DNA of 64,000 bases from Escherichia coli (GCF_002854065.1 NZ_CP024147.1), one strand, 5' to 3'; numbered from the stretch's first letter, positions 1 to 58,058 are shown. Numbers and translations are program-made. The notes: a model not told the origin generated them from the letters alone.

Positions 1-1015
1 CCGCGTATCGCAAATGTCGACCCGTGCCAGCGAGCTGGCGTTAGAGCAGGCAGGGTTGATTGGCGATCCGATATTAACCAGCGGCGAAACGGGCATTGCG
101 TACGGTTCATCGACCGGCAGTACCGGCCCGGTAAGCGAGTTCGCCACCATGCTGACGGAAAAGCACACCAATAACATCACTGGCACCACCTATGTGCAGA
201 TGATGCCGCACACCACCGCCGTTAATACTGGCCTCTTTTTCGGCCTGCGCGGGCGGGTGATCCCAACCTCCAGCGCCTGTACTTCCGGCAGCCAGGCAAT
301 CGGTTATGCGTGGGAAGCCATTCGCCACGGTTATCAAACGGTGATGGTTGCTGGTGGTGCCGAAGAGTTATGTCCTTCAGAAGCAGCGGTATTTGATACG
401 CTTTTCGCCACCAGCCAGCACAATGATGCGCCGAAAACCACACCTTCACCGTTCGATGAAAACCGCGACGGGCTGGTGATTGGTGAAGGCGCAGGTACGC
501 TCATTCTCGAAGAACTGGAGCACGCCAAAGCGCGCGGCGCGACCATTTACGGTGAAATCGTCGGCTTTGCGACTAACTGCGACGCGGCACATATTACCCA
601 GCCGCAGCGCGAAACCATGCAGTATTGTATGGAGCAATCGCTGAAAATCGCCGGGTTAAGCGCACAAGATATCGGCTATATTTCAGCGCATGGTACGGCG
701 ACCGATCGCGGTGATATGGCAGAAAGTCTGGCGACAGCAACCATTTACGGTGATAATGTGCCGCTCTCCTCGCTGAAAAGTTATTTTGGTCATACGCTTG
801 GTGCCTGTGGCGCGCTCGAAGCCTGGATGAGTCTGCAAATGATGCGCGAAGGTTGGTTTGCGCCTACGCTAAACCTGAATAAACCAGACCCGAATTGTGG
901 CGCGCTGGATTACATCATGCATGAAGCCCGCAAGGTTGATTGTGAGTTTTTGCAGAGTAACAACTTTGCCTTTGGCGGCATTAATACATCCATCATCATT
1001 AAACGTTGGCCCTGA
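1..1015 (+). CDS. 3-oxoacyl-ACP synthase (KAS I/II family), 5-prime partial; gene continues upstream of the window
   Basis: Frame open from window start; KAS motifs SSACTSGSQAIG (active-site Cys), SAHGTATDRGD and FGHTLGACGALE (His); stop TGA at 1013-1015. Confidence 0.8.
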   Translation, partial: RVSQMSTRASELALEQAGLIGDPILTSGETGIAYGSSTGSTGPVSEFATMLTEKHTNNITGTTYVQMMPHTTAVNTGLFFGLRGRVIPTSSACTSGSQAIGYAWEAIRHGYQTVMVAGGAEELCPSEAAVFDTLFATSQHNDAPKTTPSPFDENRDGLVIGEGAGTLILEELEHAKARGATIYGEIVGFATNCDAAHITQPQRETMQYCMEQSLKIAGLSAQDIGYISAHGTATDRGDMAESLATATIYGDNVPLSSLKSYFGHTLGACGALEAWMSLQMMREGWFAPTLNLNKPDPNCGALDYIMHEARKVDCEFLQSNNFAFGGINTSIIIKRWP

Positions 1016-1016
1016 T

Positions 1017-1604
1017 ATGTATCGGATAGTTCTGGGGAAAGTTTCGACCTTAAGCGCAGCTCCACTGCCACCGGGTTTACGCGAGCAAGCACCGCAAGGT
1101 CCACGACGCGAACGCTGGCTGGCGGGGCGTGCATTGCTTTCGCACACGCTTTCCCCGCTACCGGAGATCATCTATGGCGAACAAGGCAAACCTGCATTCG
1201 CGCCGGAAACGCCGCTATGGTTCAACTTAAGCCATAGCGGTGACGATATCGCCCTGCTGTTGAGTGATGAAGGCGAAGTCGGCTGCGATATCGAAGTGAT
1301 TCGCCCGCGCGCCAACTGGCGCTGGCTGGCGAACGCCGTGTTCAGCCTCGGGGAACACGCTGAAATGGACGCCGTGCATCCTGATCAGCAACTGGAAATG
1401 TTCTGGCGCATCTGGACGCGCAAAGAAGCCATCGTTAAACAGCGTGGCGGCAGCGCCTGGCAAATCGTCAGCGTAGACAGCACCTATCACTCCTCGCTGT
1501 CAGTCAGCCATTGTCAGCTAGAAAATTTAAGCCTTGCGATCTGCACCCCCACCCCCTTTACGCTCACCGCCGACAGTGTGCAATGGATCGATTCAGTTAA
1601 CTGA
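1017..1604 (+). CDS. acpT: 4-prime-phosphopantetheinyl transferase AcpT
   Basis: ATG at 1017 in frame with ORF 897-1604; product MYRIVLGK...WFNLSHSGD...WTRKEA has PPTase motifs; position immediately upstream of nikA. Confidence 0.85.
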   Translation: MYRIVLGKVSTLSAAPLPPGLREQAPQGPRRERWLAGRALLSHTLSPLPEIIYGEQGKPAFAPETPLWFNLSHSGDDIALLLSDEGEVGCDIEVIRPRANWRWLANAVFSLGEHAEMDAVHPDQQLEMFWRIWTRKEAIVKQRGGSAWQIVSVDSTYHSSLSVSHCQLENLSLAICTPTPFTLTADSVQWIDSVN

Positions 1605-1650
1605 TCCCGCCCACCCGACTGCCCATCTATTGATCCAGAACAGGTAATCA

Positions 1651-1678
1651 GTATGACGAATACTTAAAATCGTCATAC
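1651..1678 (+). promoter_or_regulatory. NikR operator (GTATGA-N16-TCATAC) in nikA promoter
   Basis: Perfect inverted half-sites GTATGA (1651-1656) and TCATAC (1673-1678) separated by 16 nt, about 40 nt upstream of nikA start. Confidence 0.8.
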
Positions 1679-1715
1679 TTATTTCCGCCATCTATTTTAA
1701 TCCATTGGGGTTACC

Positions 1716-3290
1716 ATGCTCTCCACACTCCGCCGCACTCTATTTGCGCTGCTGGCTTGTGCGTCTTTTATCGTCCATGCCGCTGCACCAGATGAAATCA
1801 CCACCGCCTGGCCGGTGAATGTCGGGCCACTAAACCCGCACCTTTACACGCCTAACCAGATGTTCGCCCAGAGCATGGTTTATGAACCGCTGGTGAAATA
1901 TCAGGCTGATGGTTCGGTGATCCCGTGGCTGGCAAAAAGCTGGACTCATTCAGAAGATGGTAAAACCTGGACCTTCACCCTGCGTGATGACGTGAAATTC
2001 TCCAACGGCGAACCGTTTGATGCAGAGGCGGCGGCAGAAAACTTCCGCGCAGTGCTCGATAACCGTCAACGTCACGCCTGGCTGGAGCTGGCAAACCAGA
2101 TTGTTGATGTTAAAGCACTCAGTAAAACAGAGCTGCAAATCACCCTGAAAAGCGCCTACTATCCTTTCCTGCAAGAACTGGCCCTGCCGCGCCCTTTCCG
2201 CTTTATCGCCCCCTCGCAGTTTAAAAACCATGAAACCATGAACGGGATTAAAGCGCCGATTGGCACCGGGCCGTGGGTTTTGCAGGAATCGAAACTGAAT
2301 CAGTACGATGTCTTCGTCCGTAACGAAAACTACTGGGGCGAAAAGCCGGCAATTAAGAAGATCACTTTTAACGTCATCCCGGACCCGACTACCCGCGCGG
2401 TGGCGTTTGAAACTGGCGATATCGACCTGCTGTACGGAAACGAAGGGTTATTACCGCTCGATACCTTCGCCCGCTTTAGCCAGAACCCGGCTTACCACAC
2501 CCAACTGTCACAGCCGATCGAAACCGTGATGCTGGCGCTCAATACCGCCAAAGCCCCCACCAACGAGCTGGCAGTACGTGAAGCTCTTAATTACGCGGTA
2601 AACAAAAAATCGCTGATTGATAACGCGTTATATGGCACCCAGCAGGTCGCCGACACTCTGTTTGCCCCTTCTGTGCCTTACGCTAATCTCGGCCTGAAAC
2701 CGCGCCAGTACGATCCGCAGAAAGCGAAAGCGTTGCTGGAAAAAGCCGGTTGGACGCTGCCTGCGGGCAAAGACATCCGCGAGAAAAATGGTCAGCCGCT
2801 GCGCATTGAACTGTCGTTCATCGGCACCGATGCGTTAAGCAAATCGATGGCGGAAATCATTCAGGCTGATATGCGCCAGATTGGCGCAGATGTCTCGCTG
2901 ATTGGCGAAGAAGAGAGCAGTATCTATGCTCGTCAGCGCGACGGTCGTTTTGGCATGATTTTCCACCGCACCTGGGGCGCGCCATATGATCCACACGCCT
3001 TCCTGAGTTCAATGCGCGTACCGTCACACGCTGACTTCCAGGCACAGCAAGGATTAGCCGACAAACCGCTGATTGATAAAGAGATCGGCGAAGTGCTGGC
3101 GACCCATGACGAAACGCAACGTCAGGCGCTGTATCGCGACATTCTGACCCGTCTGCATGACGAGGCGGTTTATCTGCCTATCAGTTACATCTCAATGATG
3201 GTGGTATCAAAACCGGAGCTGGGTAACATCCCCTACGCGCCGATCGCCACCGAAATTCCGTTCGAACAGATTAAACCGGTGAAACCTTAA
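1716..3290 (+). CDS. nikA: nickel ABC transporter periplasmic binding protein NikA
   Basis: 524-aa ORF with signal peptide, first of five-gene ABC operon followed by nikR. Confidence 0.95.
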
Positions 3291-7157: not shown

Positions 7158-7517
7158 TTATAAATGATTCAAACGCTCATTCAGTGTTTCAATAATATAG
7201 GTATTAACAGAGACTTGTTGCTGCGCAGCCGCATTATTAAGGCGTTCACTCAGCGATTCTGGATAGCGTAACGTAAAGGTCTTAATCTTTTCTGTACGCG
7301 CATACGGCTCAATACCCGCAGCTTTACAATCCTCAAGATACTCTCGCAGAGAAAGTTCCCCTTCTTTTTGCAGCCCCTGAATGCTGTCAGAGACAAAATC
7401 ACAATAACCTGACAAGCCCAGGAATTTGCCACGAAATGCATTCAGTTCTGGCACGTAAGTGATAACAGCAGGTTGCCCGGCAATCTCCATAGAGTTTGGC
7501 GTCTTCAGTTTGATCAT
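7158..7517 (-). CDS. HicB-like antitoxin (RNase H-like N-terminal region plus C-terminal ribbon-helix-helix)
   Basis: 119-aa ORF, 4-nt overlap with upstream HicA-like gene; C-terminal SLSERLNNAAAQQQVSVNTYIIETLNERL resembles an RHH DNA-binding tail. Confidence 0.55.
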   Translation of the reverse strand: MIKLKTPNSMEIAGQPAVITYVPELNAFRGKFLGLSGYCDFVSDSIQGLQKEGELSLREYLEDCKAAGIEPYARTEKIKTFTLRYPESLSERLNNAAAQQQVSVNTYIIETLNERLNHL

Positions 7518-7789
7518 GGTTTTACCCCTATACTTAGTAACCAGTCACGCACGCTTTCTACAGCGCCTTTGTCGGTATCTGGCGACGGATGAGGCCGATG
7601 GAAACACGCAACGCTCATATTTAGTATGAACTTACAACGCGAACCTCTTCCTTCCTTAATTTCTCCGCCTAATGCTTTAACCAGTGACTCTATATCAGAC
7701 CACTTGATCCCTTGAGGAACAGGAGATTTAAATATTTGATCCAATGTATTTTTTTGTTTCTTCCGTAAAGCCTGTACCTTGGTTCTCAT
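7514..7789 (-). CDS. HicA-like mRNA interferase toxin
   Basis: 91-aa basic ORF; pattern LGGEIKEGRGSRCKF...FHRPHP...DKGAVESV matches the HicA G-x-GSH...HP signature; toxin-first gene order typical of hicAB. Confidence 0.55.
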   Translation of the reverse strand: MRTKVQALRKKQKNTLDQIFKSPVPQGIKWSDIESLVKALGGEIKEGRGSRCKFILNMSVACFHRPHPSPDTDKGAVESVRDWLLSIGVKP

Positions 7790-28291: not shown

Positions 28292-29647
28292 ATGACTAAA
28301 CACTATGATTACATCGCCATCGGCGGCGGCAGCGGCGGTATCGCCTCCATCAACCGCGCGGCTATGTACGGCCAGAAATGCGCGCTGATTGAAGCCAAAG
28401 AGCTGGGCGGCACCTGCGTGAACGTCGGCTGCGTACCGAAGAAAGTGATGTGGCACGCGGCGCAAATCCGTGAAGCGATCCATATGTACGGCCCGGATTA
28501 TGGTTTTGATACCACTATCAATAAATTCAACTGGGAAACGTTGATCGCCAGCCGTACCGCCTATATCGACCGTATTCATACTTCTTATGAAAACGTGCTC
28601 GGTAAAAATAACGTTGATGTAATCAAAGGCTTTGCCCGCTTCGTTGATGCCAAAACGCTGGAAGTAAACGGCGAAACCATCACGGCCGCTCATATCCTGA
28701 TCGCCACCGGCGGTCGTCCGAGCCACCCGGATATTCCGGGCGTGGAATACGGTATTGATTCTGATGGTTTCTTTGCCCTTCCTGCTTTGCCAGAGCGTGT
28801 GGCGGTTGTTGGCGCGGGTTACATCGCCGTGGAACTGGCAGGCGTGATTAACGGCCTCGGCGCGAAAACGCATCTGTTTGTGCGTAAACATGCGCCGCTG
28901 CGCAGCTTCGACCCGATGATCTCTGAAACGCTGGTCGAAGTGATGAACGCCGAAGGCCCGCAGTTGCACACCAACGCCATCCCGAAAGCGGTAGTGAAAA
29001 ATGCCGATGGTAGCCTGACGCTGGAGCTGGAAGATGGTCGCAGTGAAACGGTGGATTGCCTGATTTGGGCGATTGGTCGCGAGCCTGCCAATGACAACAT
29101 CAACCTCGAAGCCGCTGGCGTTAAAACCAACGAAAAAGGCTATATCGTCGTCGATAAATATCAAAACACCAACATTGAAGGTATTTACGCGGTGGGCGAT
29201 AACACGGGTGCAGTAGAACTGACACCGGTGGCAGTTGCAGCGGGTCGCCGCCTCTCTGAGCGCCTGTTTAATAACAAGCCGGATGAGCATCTGGATTACA
29301 GCAACATTCCGACCGTGGTCTTCAGCCATCCGCCGATTGGTACTGTTGGTTTAACGGAACCGCAGGCGCGCGAGCAGTACGGCGACGATCAGGTGAAAGT
29401 GTATAAATCCTCTTTCACCGCGATGTATACCGCCGTCACCACTCACCGCCAGCCGTGCCGCATGAAGCTGGTGTGCGTTGGACCGGAAGAGAAGATTGTC
29501 GGTATTCACGGCATTGGTTTTGGTATGGACGAAATGTTGCAGGGCTTCGCGGTGGCACTGAAGATGGGGGCGACCAAAAAAGACTTCGACAATACCGTCG
29601 CCATTCACCCGACGGCGGCAGAAGAGTTCGTTACCATGAGAGGTTAG
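28292..29647 (+). CDS. gor: glutathione-disulfide reductase
   Basis: 451 aa; FAD site GGGSGG, redox-active [14 protein letters not shown]-terminal HPTAAEE. Confidence 0.95.
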
Positions 29648-49412: not shown

Positions 49413-50756
49413 ATGATCTTCTTTAGAGTTGAGCTAAAAGGAGTCGAGGCGATGGCCAGGATAATCCAATCAGCCGGTATCAATCATGGTGCAACAGCAA
49501 AAATAATTTCCGATTCAATAGATTATAACTCCGGCATACATATTGCAGGATTACCAACGCTATATAATAAAGATGGTCATTTTGTAGAAATTGTAAATTT
49601 GTGGTTTTTGGATTTGATAACCGTTAAGAGGCTAGAGGATATTAGTTCTTCAGCCAGAGCAATTCTTCGTTACTGGTCTTTTCTAGAACGAGAAGAGCTT
49701 ACATGGAGTCATTTTCCTCCAGTGAAACGCCTGAAACCCACATACCTTTTCCGTAGCAACGACTTGTTAAAAGCAGTTAAAGAGGGAAGACTGGCGTACT
49801 CAACTGCAAATACTTATATGGGACATTTAGTTCAGTTTTACATCTGGGCAATTGAAAATCATCATCTTGTCATATCAAGTGAAAAAGAAGCTCCCTTTAC
49901 TATTGAGTTTGTTAAGCGTAACAATAGAGGCCTGCTGGCACATCTTCGCCCAATGATCAGTGTGCAAACGAGCGATTTACGTATCCGCGTTCCTAAAGTT
50001 ACAAACGCCGAGATCCAGTCATTAACTCCTTTAACTCAAGATCATCTTTCCTTACTATCATTCAACTTAAGCCATCAATCTGTTGAATTTATGTTGATGA
50101 CTTTACTGGCCTGTAAAAGTGGTTTGAGACTTCGTGAAGCATGTAGCCTCACAATTGAGGCTTTATCTCAAGCTTTGCCCGCCAACGAATTAAAGCTACG
50201 CTATATGATCAACATTTGGCCCCACAATGGTGTTGATACAAAATTTAGAAAAAAAAGAAATATTGAAGTCCCCTGGCCTCTACTAAACGCATTACAACGC
50301 TACTCGCTGTCAGAAAGAAGGCAAAAAAGACTTTCAAAATTACAGACAAAAATAGCCATTCCCTCAATTTCGGAAAAGATTAAAGAATCCCACAATAAAG
50401 CATCTCGATTCGAACCTCTTTTTATCAGTCAGCAAGGAAATTGTATCCAGCCCGAAGTTCTAAATGCAAGGTGGGTTGCATTTAGAAATGAACTTGCCAA
50501 AAAAGAACCTAGTTTTCGTTATCGTTTCCACGACCTCCGATGTACCTATGCCACATACAGACTTCAAGACCTGCTGGATAGCAATCTCTCAGAAGGGGAT
50601 GCCCTAGACTGTCTTATGGGATGGATGGGACACAATAACGAAAGAACCACATTTAAATATATCCGCTACTTGAAGAAAAACGAGATGCTCAAGTGTGCTT
50701 TTTCGCTATTAGACTCAGTGATGGATAATGCAATAAGGGATAATTTAAATGACTGA
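49413..50756 (+). CDS. tyrosine site-specific recombinase (first of trio)
   Basis: R...HxxR...H...Y signature: LRLREACSL, FHDLRCTYATY, GHNNERTTFKYIRY. Confidence 0.8.
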   Translation: MIFFRVELKGVEAMARIIQSAGINHGATAKIISDSIDYNSGIHIAGLPTLYNKDGHFVEIVNLWFLDLITVKRLEDISSSARAILRYWSFLEREELTWSHFPPVKRLKPTYLFRSNDLLKAVKEGRLAYSTANTYMGHLVQFYIWAIENHHLVISSEKEAPFTIEFVKRNNRGLLAHLRPMISVQTSDLRIRVPKVTNAEIQSLTPLTQDHLSLLSFNLSHQSVEFMLMTLLACKSGLRLREACSLTIEALSQALPANELKLRYMINIWPHNGVDTKFRKKRNIEVPWPLLNALQRYSLSERRQKRLSKLQTKIAIPSISEKIKESHNKASRFEPLFISQQGNCIQPEVLNARWVAFRNELAKKEPSFRYRFHDLRCTYATYRLQDLLDSNLSEGDALDCLMGWMGHNNERTTFKYIRYLKKNEMLKCAFSLLDSVMDNAIRDNLND

Positions 50757-52472
50757 TAAAATCCCTCAATCCAGACTCGGCCATGAAATACTACTGGAGG
50801 TTACAGATGGTGGAAATCGTTCTAAAACACTAGATTTCAATCGCTACAACTATTTATACTTCCCCACTCGAAATAAAATAAATAGAGGTCACAGTACATT
50901 TCAAGATAGATCAGTCAGCGCTGAATCGTTATATGTAGCATTCAGAGATTCAGACTACTCATCAGCCACAAAATATTATCTTTTTGAATACCTCAGGCAA
51001 TATATTGTATTTTGCGACAAGTGTCACCATCCCATTTTCACTAATGAATCCGTGCAGGCCTACTGTGATCTCCTTATTTATAAAAATAAATCAGGAATTA
51101 TTTTGAATAGTACTTATACTGCTATCATTAGTGCCACAAAACGCTTATTCGTTATGCTTGACTTACCTGGGCGGTGGTTTGATGAATTACCAACCTTAGG
51201 AAAGTCACAGGCACAGCCCTATAAGGCCTATAGTGACAATGATTTAAAAAAACTACTCCCTTTACTGAGGATATTTTTCAAGCAAATTTCCAATAAGTTC
51301 CTACAAGACCCCGCTTTGTATCTTTCTCAAGGTAAGAATGAAACTGATATGTTTTTCAGGTGGAATGGTAAAATATATGCAGTATATGGTAGTGTCGGGC
51401 AACTAATGGCTTCTGCTGTATATCTACTGTCTTACTATACATGGGCAAACACAAATACATTACTTTCTCTTGAAAGACCAGACATATGTGAAAGTAATGT
51501 AAATGGAGAATGGTACCAAATGCCAGCATTTAAGCGCCGGGCATTTAGAGTCATCACTATTCAGATCGGTGCCCACGACCAGATCAACATTCCAAAGTAT
51601 TCAATGGAATTTTTCAACCAACTTCTAAAAGTCTCAAAAGCTATTTCAGTTGAAAGTAACTTACTTTTTCAGTCCGGTTCATGTAATCGCATCACCCCAT
51701 TATCAGCGGTCCACTTACAAAATTTCAACAGTTTTCTCAAAAAGAACTTTAGATTAACTGATGATAAAGGACTTAGCTATCACCTGTAATATCGAGATTT
51801 CGTGCTACTGGTAGTCAATTTACGCAATTGCATTACTCTCATACACATAGTGCATCGCTATTAGGAAATTCACCGAAAACAACTCGCAAGCATTATTCAG
51901 AAGGGAATGAATACCAAAATCAGTCAATGCTCCAGGACTCTGTCTCTGTTTTTGCAGACAAGGCGGTAAATGGCGGGAATATAGAGACGTCTAAAAAAAG
52001 AATAAAAAGTGAACTTAATGTTGAGATTTTAACATATGAAAGTATGCTTAAAATGAAATCTCCACCAATGCGACAGGCCCACGGCAGTTACTGTAAAGAT
52101 CCATTCGGGGAGCAGGCTAAAAAGTTCTTGCTACGCGCCCAACGTCACGATTTGCTTTCTACAGAAAAATTTGCTTGCTCAGATCTACTGATGTGTTTTT
52201 CCTGTCCTCATCAAGTTGTGATAGCTGAACCTACTGATATTTGGTGTTTGCTGAGTTTTAAAGAATGCATAGAAGAGAGTATTTACAAGCATGTCAATCA
52301 CACTCATTTCCATAATAACTATGACTCTGTGTTGTCGGCAATTGAAAAAATTTTAATGAGTATTGATAAAAAAATACTTTCAAGTGCAACTCAAAAATTT
52401 CTCGATGAGGGTCCTCACCCTTTATGGAGAGACCAGTCATTTCTATATCCATATAGCAATAAGGATACATGA
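50749..52472 (+). pseudogene. tyrosine recombinase (second of trio) interrupted by a frameshift within the catalytic region
   Basis: ORF 50749-51789 ends ...DDKGLSYHL-stop; the overlapping frame continues ...LSPVISRFRATGSQFTQLHYSHTHSASLLGNSPKTTRKHY, carrying the box II and Tyr motifs; frames overlap only in 51777-51789. Confidence 0.6.
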
Positions 52473-55785: not shown

Positions 55786-55869
55786 TCAGTTCAGAAGCTG
55801 AAGCAGAAAGCGGATCAGTTCCAGCAGCGCAATTAACGCCCCAAGAACGATGATTGCTTTATCAATCAC
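55786..55869 (-). CDS. dinQ: DinQ small membrane toxin (27-aa peptide; longer in-frame ATG at 55914)
   Basis: Minus-strand translation gives VIDKAIIVLGALIALLELIRFLLQLLN-stop from GTG 55869; below the size cutoff of the ORF track. Confidence 0.75.
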   Translation of the reverse strand: MIDKAIIVLGALIALLELIRFLLQLLN

Positions 55870-55929
55870 CCGTTTTCTCCATGCGATGGAGTGAGAATGC
55901 ATCCGCTTACTCATCCATTGCCTGTCACG

Positions 55930-56403: not shown

Positions 56404-56772
56404 ATGAGCAACATTACCATTTATCACAACCCGGCCTGCGGCACGTCGCGTAATACGCTGGAGATGATCCGCAACAGCGGCACAGAACCGACCATTATCC
56501 ATTATCTGGAAACTCCGCCAACGCGCGATGAACTGGTCAAACTCATTGCCGATATGGGGATTTCCGTACGCGCGCTGCTGCGTAAAAACGTCGAGCCGTA
56601 TGAGGAACTGGGTCTTGCAGAAGATAAATTTACTGACGATCGGTTAATTGATTTTATGCTGCAACATCCTATCCTGATTAACCGTCCGATTGTGGTGACG
56701 CCGCTGGGAACTCGCCTATGCCGCCCCTCGGAAGTGGTGCTGGAAATTCTGCCAGATGCGCAAAAAGGCGCG
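56404..56772 (+). pseudogene. arsC: arsC truncated at about codon 123 by IS1
   Basis: MSNITIYHNPACGTSRN... reads into the IS1 terminal repeat at 56773; differs from the island arsC at several residues. Confidence 0.8.
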
Positions 56773-56787
56773 GGTAATGACTCCAAC

Positions 56788-57291
56788 TTATTGATAGTGT
56801 TTTATGTTCAGATAATGCCCGATGACTTTGTCATGCAGCTCCACCGATTTTGAGAACGACAGCGACTTCCGTCCCAGCCGTGCCAGGTGCTGCCTCAGAT
56901 TCAGGTTATGCCGCTCAATTCGCTGCGTATATCGCTTGCTGATTACGTGCAGCTTTCCCTTCAGGCGGGATTCATACAGCGGCCAGCCATCCGTCATCCA
57001 TATCACCACGTCAAAGGGTGACAGCAGGCTCATAAGACGCCCCAGCGTCGCCATAGTGCGTTCACCGAATACGTGCGCAACAACCGTCTTCCGGAGCCTG
57101 TCATACGCGTAAAACAGCCAGCGCTGGCGCGATTTAGCCCCGACGTATCCCCACTGTTCGTCCATTTCCGCGCAGACGATGACGTCACTGCCCGGCTGTA
57201 TGCGCGAGGTTACCGACTGCGGCCTGAGTTTTTTAAATGGCGGAAAATCGTGTTGAGGCCAACGCCCATAATGCGGGCGGTTGCCCGGCAT
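56788..57291 (-). CDS. insB: IS1 InsB
   Basis: 167-aa ORF inside IS1. Confidence 0.85.
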
Positions 57292-57485
57292 CCAACGCCA
57301 TTCATGGCCATATCAATGATTTTCTGGTGCGTACCGGGTTGAGAAGCGGTGTAAGTGAACTGCAGTTGCCATGTTTTACGGCAGTGAGAGCAGAGATAGC
57401 GCTGATGTCCGGCAGTGCTTTTGCCGTTACGCACCACCCCGTCAGTAGCTGAACAGGAGGGACAGCTGATAGAAACAGAAGCCAC
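57210..57485 (-). CDS. insA: IS1 InsA
   Basis: 91-aa zinc-finger/[28 protein letters not shown]. Confidence 0.85.
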
Positions 57486-57554
57486 TGGAGCACCTCAAAA
57501 ACACCATCATACACTAAATCAGTAAGTTGGCAGCATCACCTTACCAGGGATACG

Positions 57555-58058
57555 ATGTTCTTCACCGCGATGAAAAACATTCTGAGTAAAGGTAATGTCG
57601 TTCATATACAGAACGAAGAAGAGATCGACGTAATGTTGCATCAGAATGCCTTCGTCATTATTGATACATTAATGAATAATGTATTTCATTCTAATTTTCT
57701 CACTCAAATCGAACGATTAAAACCTGTCCATGTCATTATTTTCTCCCCCTTTAATATTAAACGCTGCCTGGGGAAAGTGCCGGTGACCTTTGTTCCGCGG
57801 ACTATCACTATCATTGATTTTGTCGCACTCATCAATGGCAGTTACTGCTCCGTGCCTGAAGCGAATGTGTCACTTTCGCGCAAGCAACATCAGGTTCTGA
57901 GCTGCATTGCGAATCAAATGACAACGGAAGATATTCTGGAGAAACTGAAAATATCGCTAAAAACGTTCTACTGCCATAAACACAATATCATGATGATCCT
58001 CAATCTTAAGCGGATCAATGAGCTGGTACGCCATCAGCATATTGATTATCTGGTGTGA
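57555..58058 (+). CDS. dctR: LuxR-family regulator DctR (YhiF)-like, 5-prime end and promoter replaced by IS1
   Basis: C-terminal LuxR HTH; reading frame is open back into the IS1 end; first in-frame ATG at 57555. Confidence 0.6.
   Translation: MFFTAMKNILSKGNVVHIQNEEEIDVMLHQNAFVIIDTLMNNVFHSNFLTQIERLKPVHVIIFSPFNIKRCLGKVPVTFVPRTITIIDFVALINGSYCSVPEANVSLSRKQHQVLSCIANQMTTEDILEKLKISLKTFYCHKHNIMMILNLKRINELVRHQHIDYLV

Follow-up and report, generated by a model that had tools for sequence, protein, structure and literature searches.

In an Escherichia coli chromosome, acpT directly follows a ketosynthase gene and very probably closes an aryl-polyene cluster

The aryl-polyene cluster APE_Ec, from the uropathogenic E. 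coli strain CFT073, is attributed to Cimermancic et al. (2014). Aryl polyenes are pigment lipids of the outer membrane that are implicated in protection from oxidative stress and in biofilm formation, and the CFT073 cluster yields APE_Ec on heterologous expression (PMC8253772). In E. coli O157:H7, the genes Z4851-Z4861 constitute O-island 138, in which Z4854 encodes a putative acyl carrier protein (PMC2907692). Johnston et al. 2021 (PMC8253772) relate, with De Lay and Cronan (2006, Mol Microbiol 61:232) as their source, that the ApeEF homologues of EDL933 are activated by AcpT in vitro, and they tie the O157:H7 carrier proteins of that work to ApeE and ApeF; PMC4103896 and PMC8174602 also cite the AcpT work. 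The concept of an Asp-Xxx-Glu Mg triad in such transferases is set out in PMC4103896. In Acinetobacter baumannii, the gene after apeR encodes a protein of unknown function and not a phosphopantetheinyl transferase (PMC8358021). A 2026 preprint on APE expression mentions neither AcpT nor promoters (PMC12871727).

We analysed a stretch of 64,000 nucleotides of E. coli DNA (NZ_CP024147.1), hereafter the window, which begins inside apeR. The features at its start are listed below, where AbApeR is the ApeR of A. baumannii (structure 7F27).

2..1015, + strand: 3' part of apeR, codons 73-409 and the TGA stop, assigned by Pfam, NF006587 and identity to ApeR of CFT073 (c1186)
140-142, 191-193 and 392-394, + strand: codons of ApeR Phe119, Tyr136 and Phe203, equivalent to the aryl-stacking Phe118, Tyr135 and Phe202 of AbApeR
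278..280, + strand: codon of the catalytic Cys165 of ApeR in the motif SSACTSG (nt 269-289), aligned to Cys164 of AbApeR
689-691 and 791-793, + strand: codons of ApeR His302 and His336, the catalytic partners of Cys165, from sequence reading and alignment to 7F27
997..1015, + strand: last 19 nt of apeR (CATTAAACGTTGGCCCTGA), its last six codons and stop, and the sole remnant of the cluster in cluster-less E. coli
1016..1016, + strand: spacer between apeR and acpT, a single base read from the sequence; a gap of 1-3 nt is kept across species
1017..1604, + strand: acpT, encoding a 195-residue Sfp-type (group II) 4'-phosphopantetheinyl transferase, with its TGA at 1602-1604
1281-1295, + strand: Mg site of AcpT, D91-x-E93 in GCDIE (residues 89-93), from sequence reading
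1413-1439, + strand: WTRKEAIVK of AcpT (residues 133-141), the W/F-x-x-K-E-A-x-x-K motif, from sequence reading
1605..1715, no strand: intergenic region between acpT and nikA, the end of the ape-acpT gene string

On the + strand, the frame entered at base 2 runs uninterrupted until the TGA at 1013-1015 and gives a product of 337 residues. Just one base, T1016, separates this stop codon from the acpT ATG at 1017 (TGA-T-ATG), exactly as the initial annotation had described when it placed the end of a ketosynthase ORF 1 nt before the acpT start, and profile matches confirm the families of both products. The next gene downstream of acpT, nikA, starts at 1716. A consensus promoter and terminator scan of window positions 1-1800, the apeR-acpT junction included, found no terminator-like and no sigma-70-like site, and the acpT ATG is not preceded by a clear Shine-Dalgarno sequence. 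Of 5426 complete E. coli genomes, 569 contain the whole 1604-base segment with 95-100% identity, and their annotation there names a beta-ketoacyl-ACP synthase and then acpT. The TGA-T-ATG junction, its lack of an obvious Shine-Dalgarno sequence and its conservation make it most likely, as far as the geometry tells, that acpT shares a transcript with apeR and that the translation of the two genes is coupled.

We read the genes upstream of the window in two near-identical complete genomes. CUWW06 (NZ_CP182139.1) is 100% identical to the window over positions 1-25000 and, apart from an indel of 80 nt, 99.98% identical over the rest, where 10 bases mismatch; strain 100416 shows 8 differences over 21,604 bases. 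Both genomes have 18 co-oriented, mostly overlapping genes in the 15.4 kb that separate yhhT from acpT, all annotated intact, with apeR as the final gene after apeQ.

yhhT-acpT interval, genes 1-4: lipoprotein, methyltransferase, ketosynthase chain-length factor, lysophospholipid acyltransferase
yhhT-acpT interval, genes 5-9: two carrier proteins, COG4648 protein, AMP-binding (adenylating) enzyme, FabZ-like dehydratase
yhhT-acpT interval, genes 10-14: family-2 glycosyltransferase, thioesterase, LolA-like protein, MMPL/RND transporter, DUF3261 protein
yhhT-acpT interval, genes 15-18: ketosynthase, ApeP-family dehydratase, FabG2 (ketoreductase), the ketosynthase of the window (ApeR)

The order and the predicted functions of these genes correspond gene for gene to apeA-apeR (Table 1 of PMC8253772), and family scans identify the chain-length factor, the 4-coumarate-ligase-like ApeH and a methyltransferase of the FlxJ family. 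Along the string from apeA to acpT, neighbouring genes overlap or lie no more than 40 nt apart at 17 of 18 junctions, a pattern that the 1-nt gap between apeR and acpT fits. Both carrier proteins carry the motif LDSID, with Ser41 in the 85-residue ApeE and Ser40 in the 83-residue ApeF, and they match NF006617 with 90.8 bits (cutoff 70) and NF003757 with 146 bits (cutoff 65). Taken together, the cluster is very probably the aryl-polyene (type II PKS-like) cluster apeA-R with acpT as effectively its 19th gene, and deletion of this cluster orphaned acpT in K-12. The initial annotation had proposed a fatty-acid or polyketide-like cluster with acpT at its end: the polyketide-like half of this proposal is borne out by the 18 type II PKS-like genes in the two genomes, and the fatty-acid half is not. 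It had also expected the strain to retain the cognate carrier-protein genes, and the upstream inspection that it suggested located two of them in tandem in both genomes, which supports this expectation.

The closest described counterpart is O-island 138 with acpT in O157:H7 EDL933, which occupies the same site (yhhT, cluster, acpT, nikA) and has the same 18 genes. In the comparison strain F6321, also O157:H7, ApeR and AcpT are identical to those of the window (AcpT being the same WP_000285784.1), ApeE and ApeF differ by one residue each (98.8% identity), and ApeC and ApeG are 94% and 96% identical. The strain background differs from O157:H7, the best matches being isolates from wastewater and from Gambian stool. 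The APE_Ec cluster of CFT073 (c1186-c1204; PMC8253772) shares all 18 genes and their order, and its proteins are 94-100% identical to those of this cluster (96-100% for ApeJ-ApeR) except for ApeA (65%), ApeH (66%), ApeI (72%) and ApeG (82%); these four divergent proteins indicate that the acpT-linked version and the CFT073 version are mosaics. We assume that both versions make the same pigment, with ApeH only 66% identical between them. However, the CFT073 copy lies on a pathogenicity island beside dgcT/pgaA together with an integrase, and it ends at the apeR stop without acpT. The proteins of the CFT073 locus share accessions with the pathogenicity-island copy that we compared, and this copy has no phosphopantetheinyl transferase of its own; therefore, physical linkage to acpT is not required for function.

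All but one of the 5426 complete E. coli genomes (5425) carry acpT, matching over the full 997-1604, with or without the APE cluster; APE carrier genes are missing from about 85% of them. At least 80% of the ketosynthase segment is found in 824 of the 5426, and the carrier-protein pair likewise in 824, each counted separately. By subtraction, about 255 E. coli genomes have the cluster away from acpT, and the single such locus examined is CFT073-like and lies on a pathogenicity island. An AcpT scan with one genome per species retrieved 80 enterobacterial loci, and in 53 of these species representatives apeO-P-Q-R lie directly upstream of acpT; the genera with this arrangement include Citrobacter, Raoultella, Klebsiella, Enterobacter, Leclercia, Lelliottia, Kosakonia, Pluralibacter, Kluyvera and Cedecea. 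The apeR stop and the acpT start lie 1 nt apart in 22 loci, 2 nt apart in 28 and 3 nt apart in one, which makes 51 of the 53, and the other two loci have a damaged apeR. The remaining 27 representatives have yhhT followed by acpT and no cluster.

K-12 belongs to the cluster-less type. Its acpT follows yhhT after a 54-nt spacer and has no ketosynthase beside it, in agreement with the statement of the initial annotation that acpT lacks such neighbours in K-12. Homology between K-12 and the cluster-bearing genomes ends at the last codon of yhhT and resumes with the last 19 nt of apeR, so that yhhT is followed by a 38-nt filler, these 19 nt, T and acpT. Among the matches listed, all cluster-less E. 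coli align to the query from base 997 onward. A CFT073-type apeR, which has no acpT behind it, ends in the same codons with two synonymous differences, which shows the 19 nt to be apeR sequence and the K-12 arrangement to be the scar of a deletion. These 19 nt (997..1015) are probably the translation-initiation region of acpT, and they are also conserved before orphan acpT. The 38-nt filler gave only chance 10-13-mers in a short-word BLAST against island-bearing and CFT073-type loci.

The 3' remnants of apeR in the cluster-less spacers vary in length, from 19 nt in Escherichia to at least 57 nt in some Enterobacter and Leclercia, and remnants of different lengths indicate loss of the cluster rather than gain. 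One alignable scar is common to Escherichia, Salmonella enterica subsp. arizonae/diarizonae, one Citrobacter group and the C. freundii complex, where it is 8-9 nt longer. Cluster-bearing and cluster-less alleles coexist within Escherichia and within Citrobacter. The species survey, the remnants and the shared scar together lead us to conclude that the cluster-bearing arrangement is ancestral for the family and was lost several times.

These distributions also bear on a different account of the adjacency, namely that a horizontal island was inserted by accident beside an unrelated resident acpT and that the adjacency is functionally meaningless. Such an account would accommodate an acpT in 5425 of the 5426 E. 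coli against a carrier pair in only 824, as well as a CFT073-type island copy far from acpT and without a phosphopantetheinyl transferase. It is nevertheless very improbable, since the 1-3 nt gap is kept in 51 species representatives from more than 10 genera, the differing lengths of the apeR remnants point to loss, the GC content of the cluster (0.555) is similar to that of its flanks (0.53-0.57), and AcpT is reported (PMC8253772) to modify the island carrier proteins.

The full-length ApeR has 409 residues and is a FabB/FabF-like beta-ketoacyl synthase, of which the window holds the last 337 codons. The fragment matches the N- and C-terminal ketoacyl-synt domains PF00109 (E 5.5e-28) and PF02801 (E 2e-27), and the equivalog NF006587, "beta-ketoacyl-ACP synthase", with 650.8 bits (cutoff 470) over model positions 72-407 of 408, the 72 N-terminal residues being missing; from this model coverage, apeR begins about 72 codons (about 216 nt) upstream of the window. 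In the alignment to 7F27, the Cys-His-His triad and the aryl-stacking residues are all present. The best matches of ApeR among solved structures are 4EWG of Paraburkholderia phymatum (E 1e-164, 552 bits) and AbApeR itself (7F27, E 4.9e-158, 530 bits), and ApeR is 99.76% identical to c1186 of CFT073. The catalytic residues, the intact full-length gene in the two near-identical genomes and the presence in 824 genomes rule out a pseudogene or a chance ORF.

It may be asked whether the cluster is instead a second fatty-acid synthase that makes an unusual fatty acid or lipid, with the ketosynthase as a FabF/FabB paralogue; the FabF/FabB fold with its Cys-His-His triad and the FabG-, FabZ- and acyltransferase-like genes of the cluster would agree with this. 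We find the proposal scarcely credible. Without its first 72 residues, the query reaches 307.8 bits on the FabF equivalog TIGR03150 and 233.7 bits on the FabB equivalog NF005935, below the respective cutoffs of 493.75 and 630, whereas NF006587 passes. With FabF structures as targets the full-length ApeR gives about 250 bits and with FabB about 195, far below the 530-552 bits of its matches to the ApeR homologues; thus, a housekeeping FabF/FabB paralogue is ruled out. Furthermore, its near-identical CFT073 counterpart comes from an APE_Ec-producing cluster, the aryl-stacking Tyr and Phe are kept, and the chain-length factor, ApeH and the FlxJ-family methyltransferase are present.

Least credible of all is a cluster truncated or disrupted in the source strain, with acpT behind a ketosynthase fragment only: the window does show just 337 apeR codons and the closest complete genome does differ beyond 25 kb by the mismatches and the indel given above, but all 18 genes are annotated intact in both near-identical genomes, the ketosynthase segment (80% of it or more) and the carrier pair are each present in 824 E. 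coli, counted separately, and the apeR codons in the window form an open frame with all the catalytic residues kept.

As for the transferase, AcpT matches its equivalog NF007676 with 396 bits (cutoff 174) over residues 1-195 of 195, and PF01648 with 44.1 bits (cutoff 25). Its 100% identity to the O157:H7 AcpT and the 98.8% identity of ApeE and ApeF to their O157:H7 counterparts suggest that the AcpT of the window phosphopantetheinylates ApeE and ApeF, to judge from the sequences. AcpT would transfer 4'-phosphopantetheine from CoA to Ser41 of ApeE and Ser40 of ApeF, and the holo carriers would then support the pathway, as published for the clusters of Xenorhabdus, Acinetobacter and CFT073. ApeH would load 4-hydroxybenzoate on a carrier protein, and ApeR may carry out the initiation or the early condensations and elongations. 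Further elongation cycles by ApeO-ApeC, ApeQ and ApeI/P would complete the polyene, which ApeB would methylate and ApeK release. ApeD/J may join the product to a lipid, and ApeL/M/N may export it to the outer membrane. In K-12 and about 85% of E. coli, a deletion that reaches from the last yhhT codon to the last 19 nt of apeR has removed the 15.4-kb cluster, leaving acpT orphaned.

The orphaned gene shows no sign of relaxed constraint. It is intact in all 27 cluster-less representatives (192-206 residues), and the median pairwise dN/dS (Nei-Gojobori) of acpT is 0.12 in cluster-less and 0.17 in cluster-bearing representatives, rough values with many inter-genus pairs near saturation (dS 1.4-2.0). 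We relied mainly on the pair of K-12 and E. albertii, with a dN/dS of 0.11 at a dS of 0.32. Since acpT is kept and remains under purifying selection when orphaned, the modification of ApeE and ApeF may not be its sole role. With this conservation of acpT, the scar shared by Escherichia, Salmonella and Citrobacter and the two alleles within genera allow a tentative reading, in our view rather doubtful, in which the "orphan" acpT is no relic and the 15.4-kb presence/absence polymorphism is ancient or repeatedly exchanged. If this were true, it would imply an additional substrate or function of AcpT, or a recurrent re-acquisition of the cluster.

For annotation, the strain has the chromosomal, acpT-linked version of the aryl-polyene cluster, with the transferase in its ancestral position. 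The comparative data firm up the 2006 account of orphaning by deletion, with an adjacency that is ancestral across the Enterobacteriaceae, and they raise the modest question of why purifying selection keeps acpT after the loss of the cluster. The finding is correct but ordinary, and it matters little beyond correct annotation.

The apeR-acpT arrangement was already known from O157:H7 (2006), with the link to aryl polyenes made in 2021. What is added here is incremental: the adjacency, with a 1-3 nt gap in 51 of 80 enterobacterial species representatives and as such in 569 of 5426 complete E. coli genomes, and the intact orphan acpT with a dN/dS of about 0.1. AbApeR (PMC8358021) and 4EWG are orthologues from other orders, and they align end to end with the ApeR of the window and share the triad, the gating Phe and the equivalents of Tyr135 and Phe202. 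The apeR-acpT linkage was seen only among the enterobacterial loci retrieved with AcpT. Sfp/EntD-type transferases encoded in or beside PKS/NRPS clusters belong to the same family as AcpT (PF01648, with the Asp-x-Glu Mg site and W-x-x-K-E-A) and follow the same logic, a dedicated enzyme at the edge of the cluster whose carriers need activating. AcpT differs in that nearly every E. coli genome retains it, including those that have lost the cluster.

The acpT gene of the window (1017-1604) was compared with the acpT genes of 80 enterobacterial species representatives (L005-L084), and the gene is intact in all of the cluster-less representatives (27/27). The dN/dS of acpT is no higher without the aryl-polyene (ape) cluster, at ~0.12 in cluster-less versus 0.17 in cluster-bearing genomes. 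In addition, a full-length acpT match is present in 5425 of 5426 E. coli genomes, despite the absence of the genes for the carrier proteins ApeE and ApeF from ~85% of them. Because it is intact, has a low dN/dS and is nearly universal in E. coli, the "orphan" acpT appears, from these sequence comparisons, to be under selection.

The deletion scar left between yhhT and acpT was compared in K-12 (L002:5967-6020) and in the yhhT-acpT spacers of the representatives L006-L009, L013, L015, L016, L018, L020, L022-L026, L028, and L029. One scar is common to Escherichia species, Salmonella enterica subsp. arizonae and diarizonae, and Citrobacter; the homologous spacers are 51-63 nt long and keep the proximal ~19 nt of apeR. 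The scars of Enterobacter and Leclercia differ from it. Escherichia and Citrobacter each also contain cluster-bearing alleles. Taken together, this distribution suggests either that the polymorphism is ancient or that the alleles have been exchanged laterally.

Two E. coli versions of the cluster, both located outside the window, were also compared: an acpT-linked version (L085:2999-18015) and the CFT073-type version on a pathogenicity island (L003:5994-21015). The two are mosaics, with 96-100% protein identity from ApeJ to ApeR but only 66% in ApeH, 65% in ApeA, 72% in ApeI, and 82% in ApeG, and ~1 kb around apeG and apeH does not align at the megablast level. ApeH is the starter-activating enzyme of the cluster, and, judging from these protein sequences, the two versions might load different aryl starters.

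The remainder of the window contains the following features:

~7158-7789, minus strand: hicB/hicA type II toxin-antitoxin pair, between nikR and yhhJ
~13151-16624, minus strand: yhiJ and a second copy, two tandem DUF4049 paralogues
~29.8-55.7 kb: insert of ~26 kb, between gorA (28292-29647) and dinQ (55788-55871)
~49454-50758: site-specific integrase, within this insert and with hypothetical genes after it
~56789-57486: IS1 element, within the region ~56405-57620
~58.0-64.0 kb, end of the window: chu/shu heme-uptake genes chuS, chuA, shuT, and hutW

The gorA-dinQ insert is an integrative arsenic-resistance island. Besides an arsDABC operon it carries a second set of arsenic genes, arsA/arsD/arsH/arsR, accompanied by a sigma-70-family factor; a DEAD/DEAH helicase, IS2, and an AAA ATPase are also present. 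Overall, the window has a low GC content (0.485), probably because of this island. The IS1 element overlaps the end of an arsC gene annotated at that place and adjoins a truncated helix-turn-helix regulator gene; the 80 nt at 57541-57620 are missing from the E. coli genome CUWW06, which is otherwise 99.98% identical. The chuA gene is not known to be present in E. coli phylogroups A and B1; its presence here therefore indicates that the strain probably belongs to neither.

The gene content between nikR and yhhJ is variable: in K-12, nikR is directly followed by rhsB, inside which the K-12 stretch compared ends, and in O157:H7 an additional GntR-PTS-aldolase block separates nikR from hicB.
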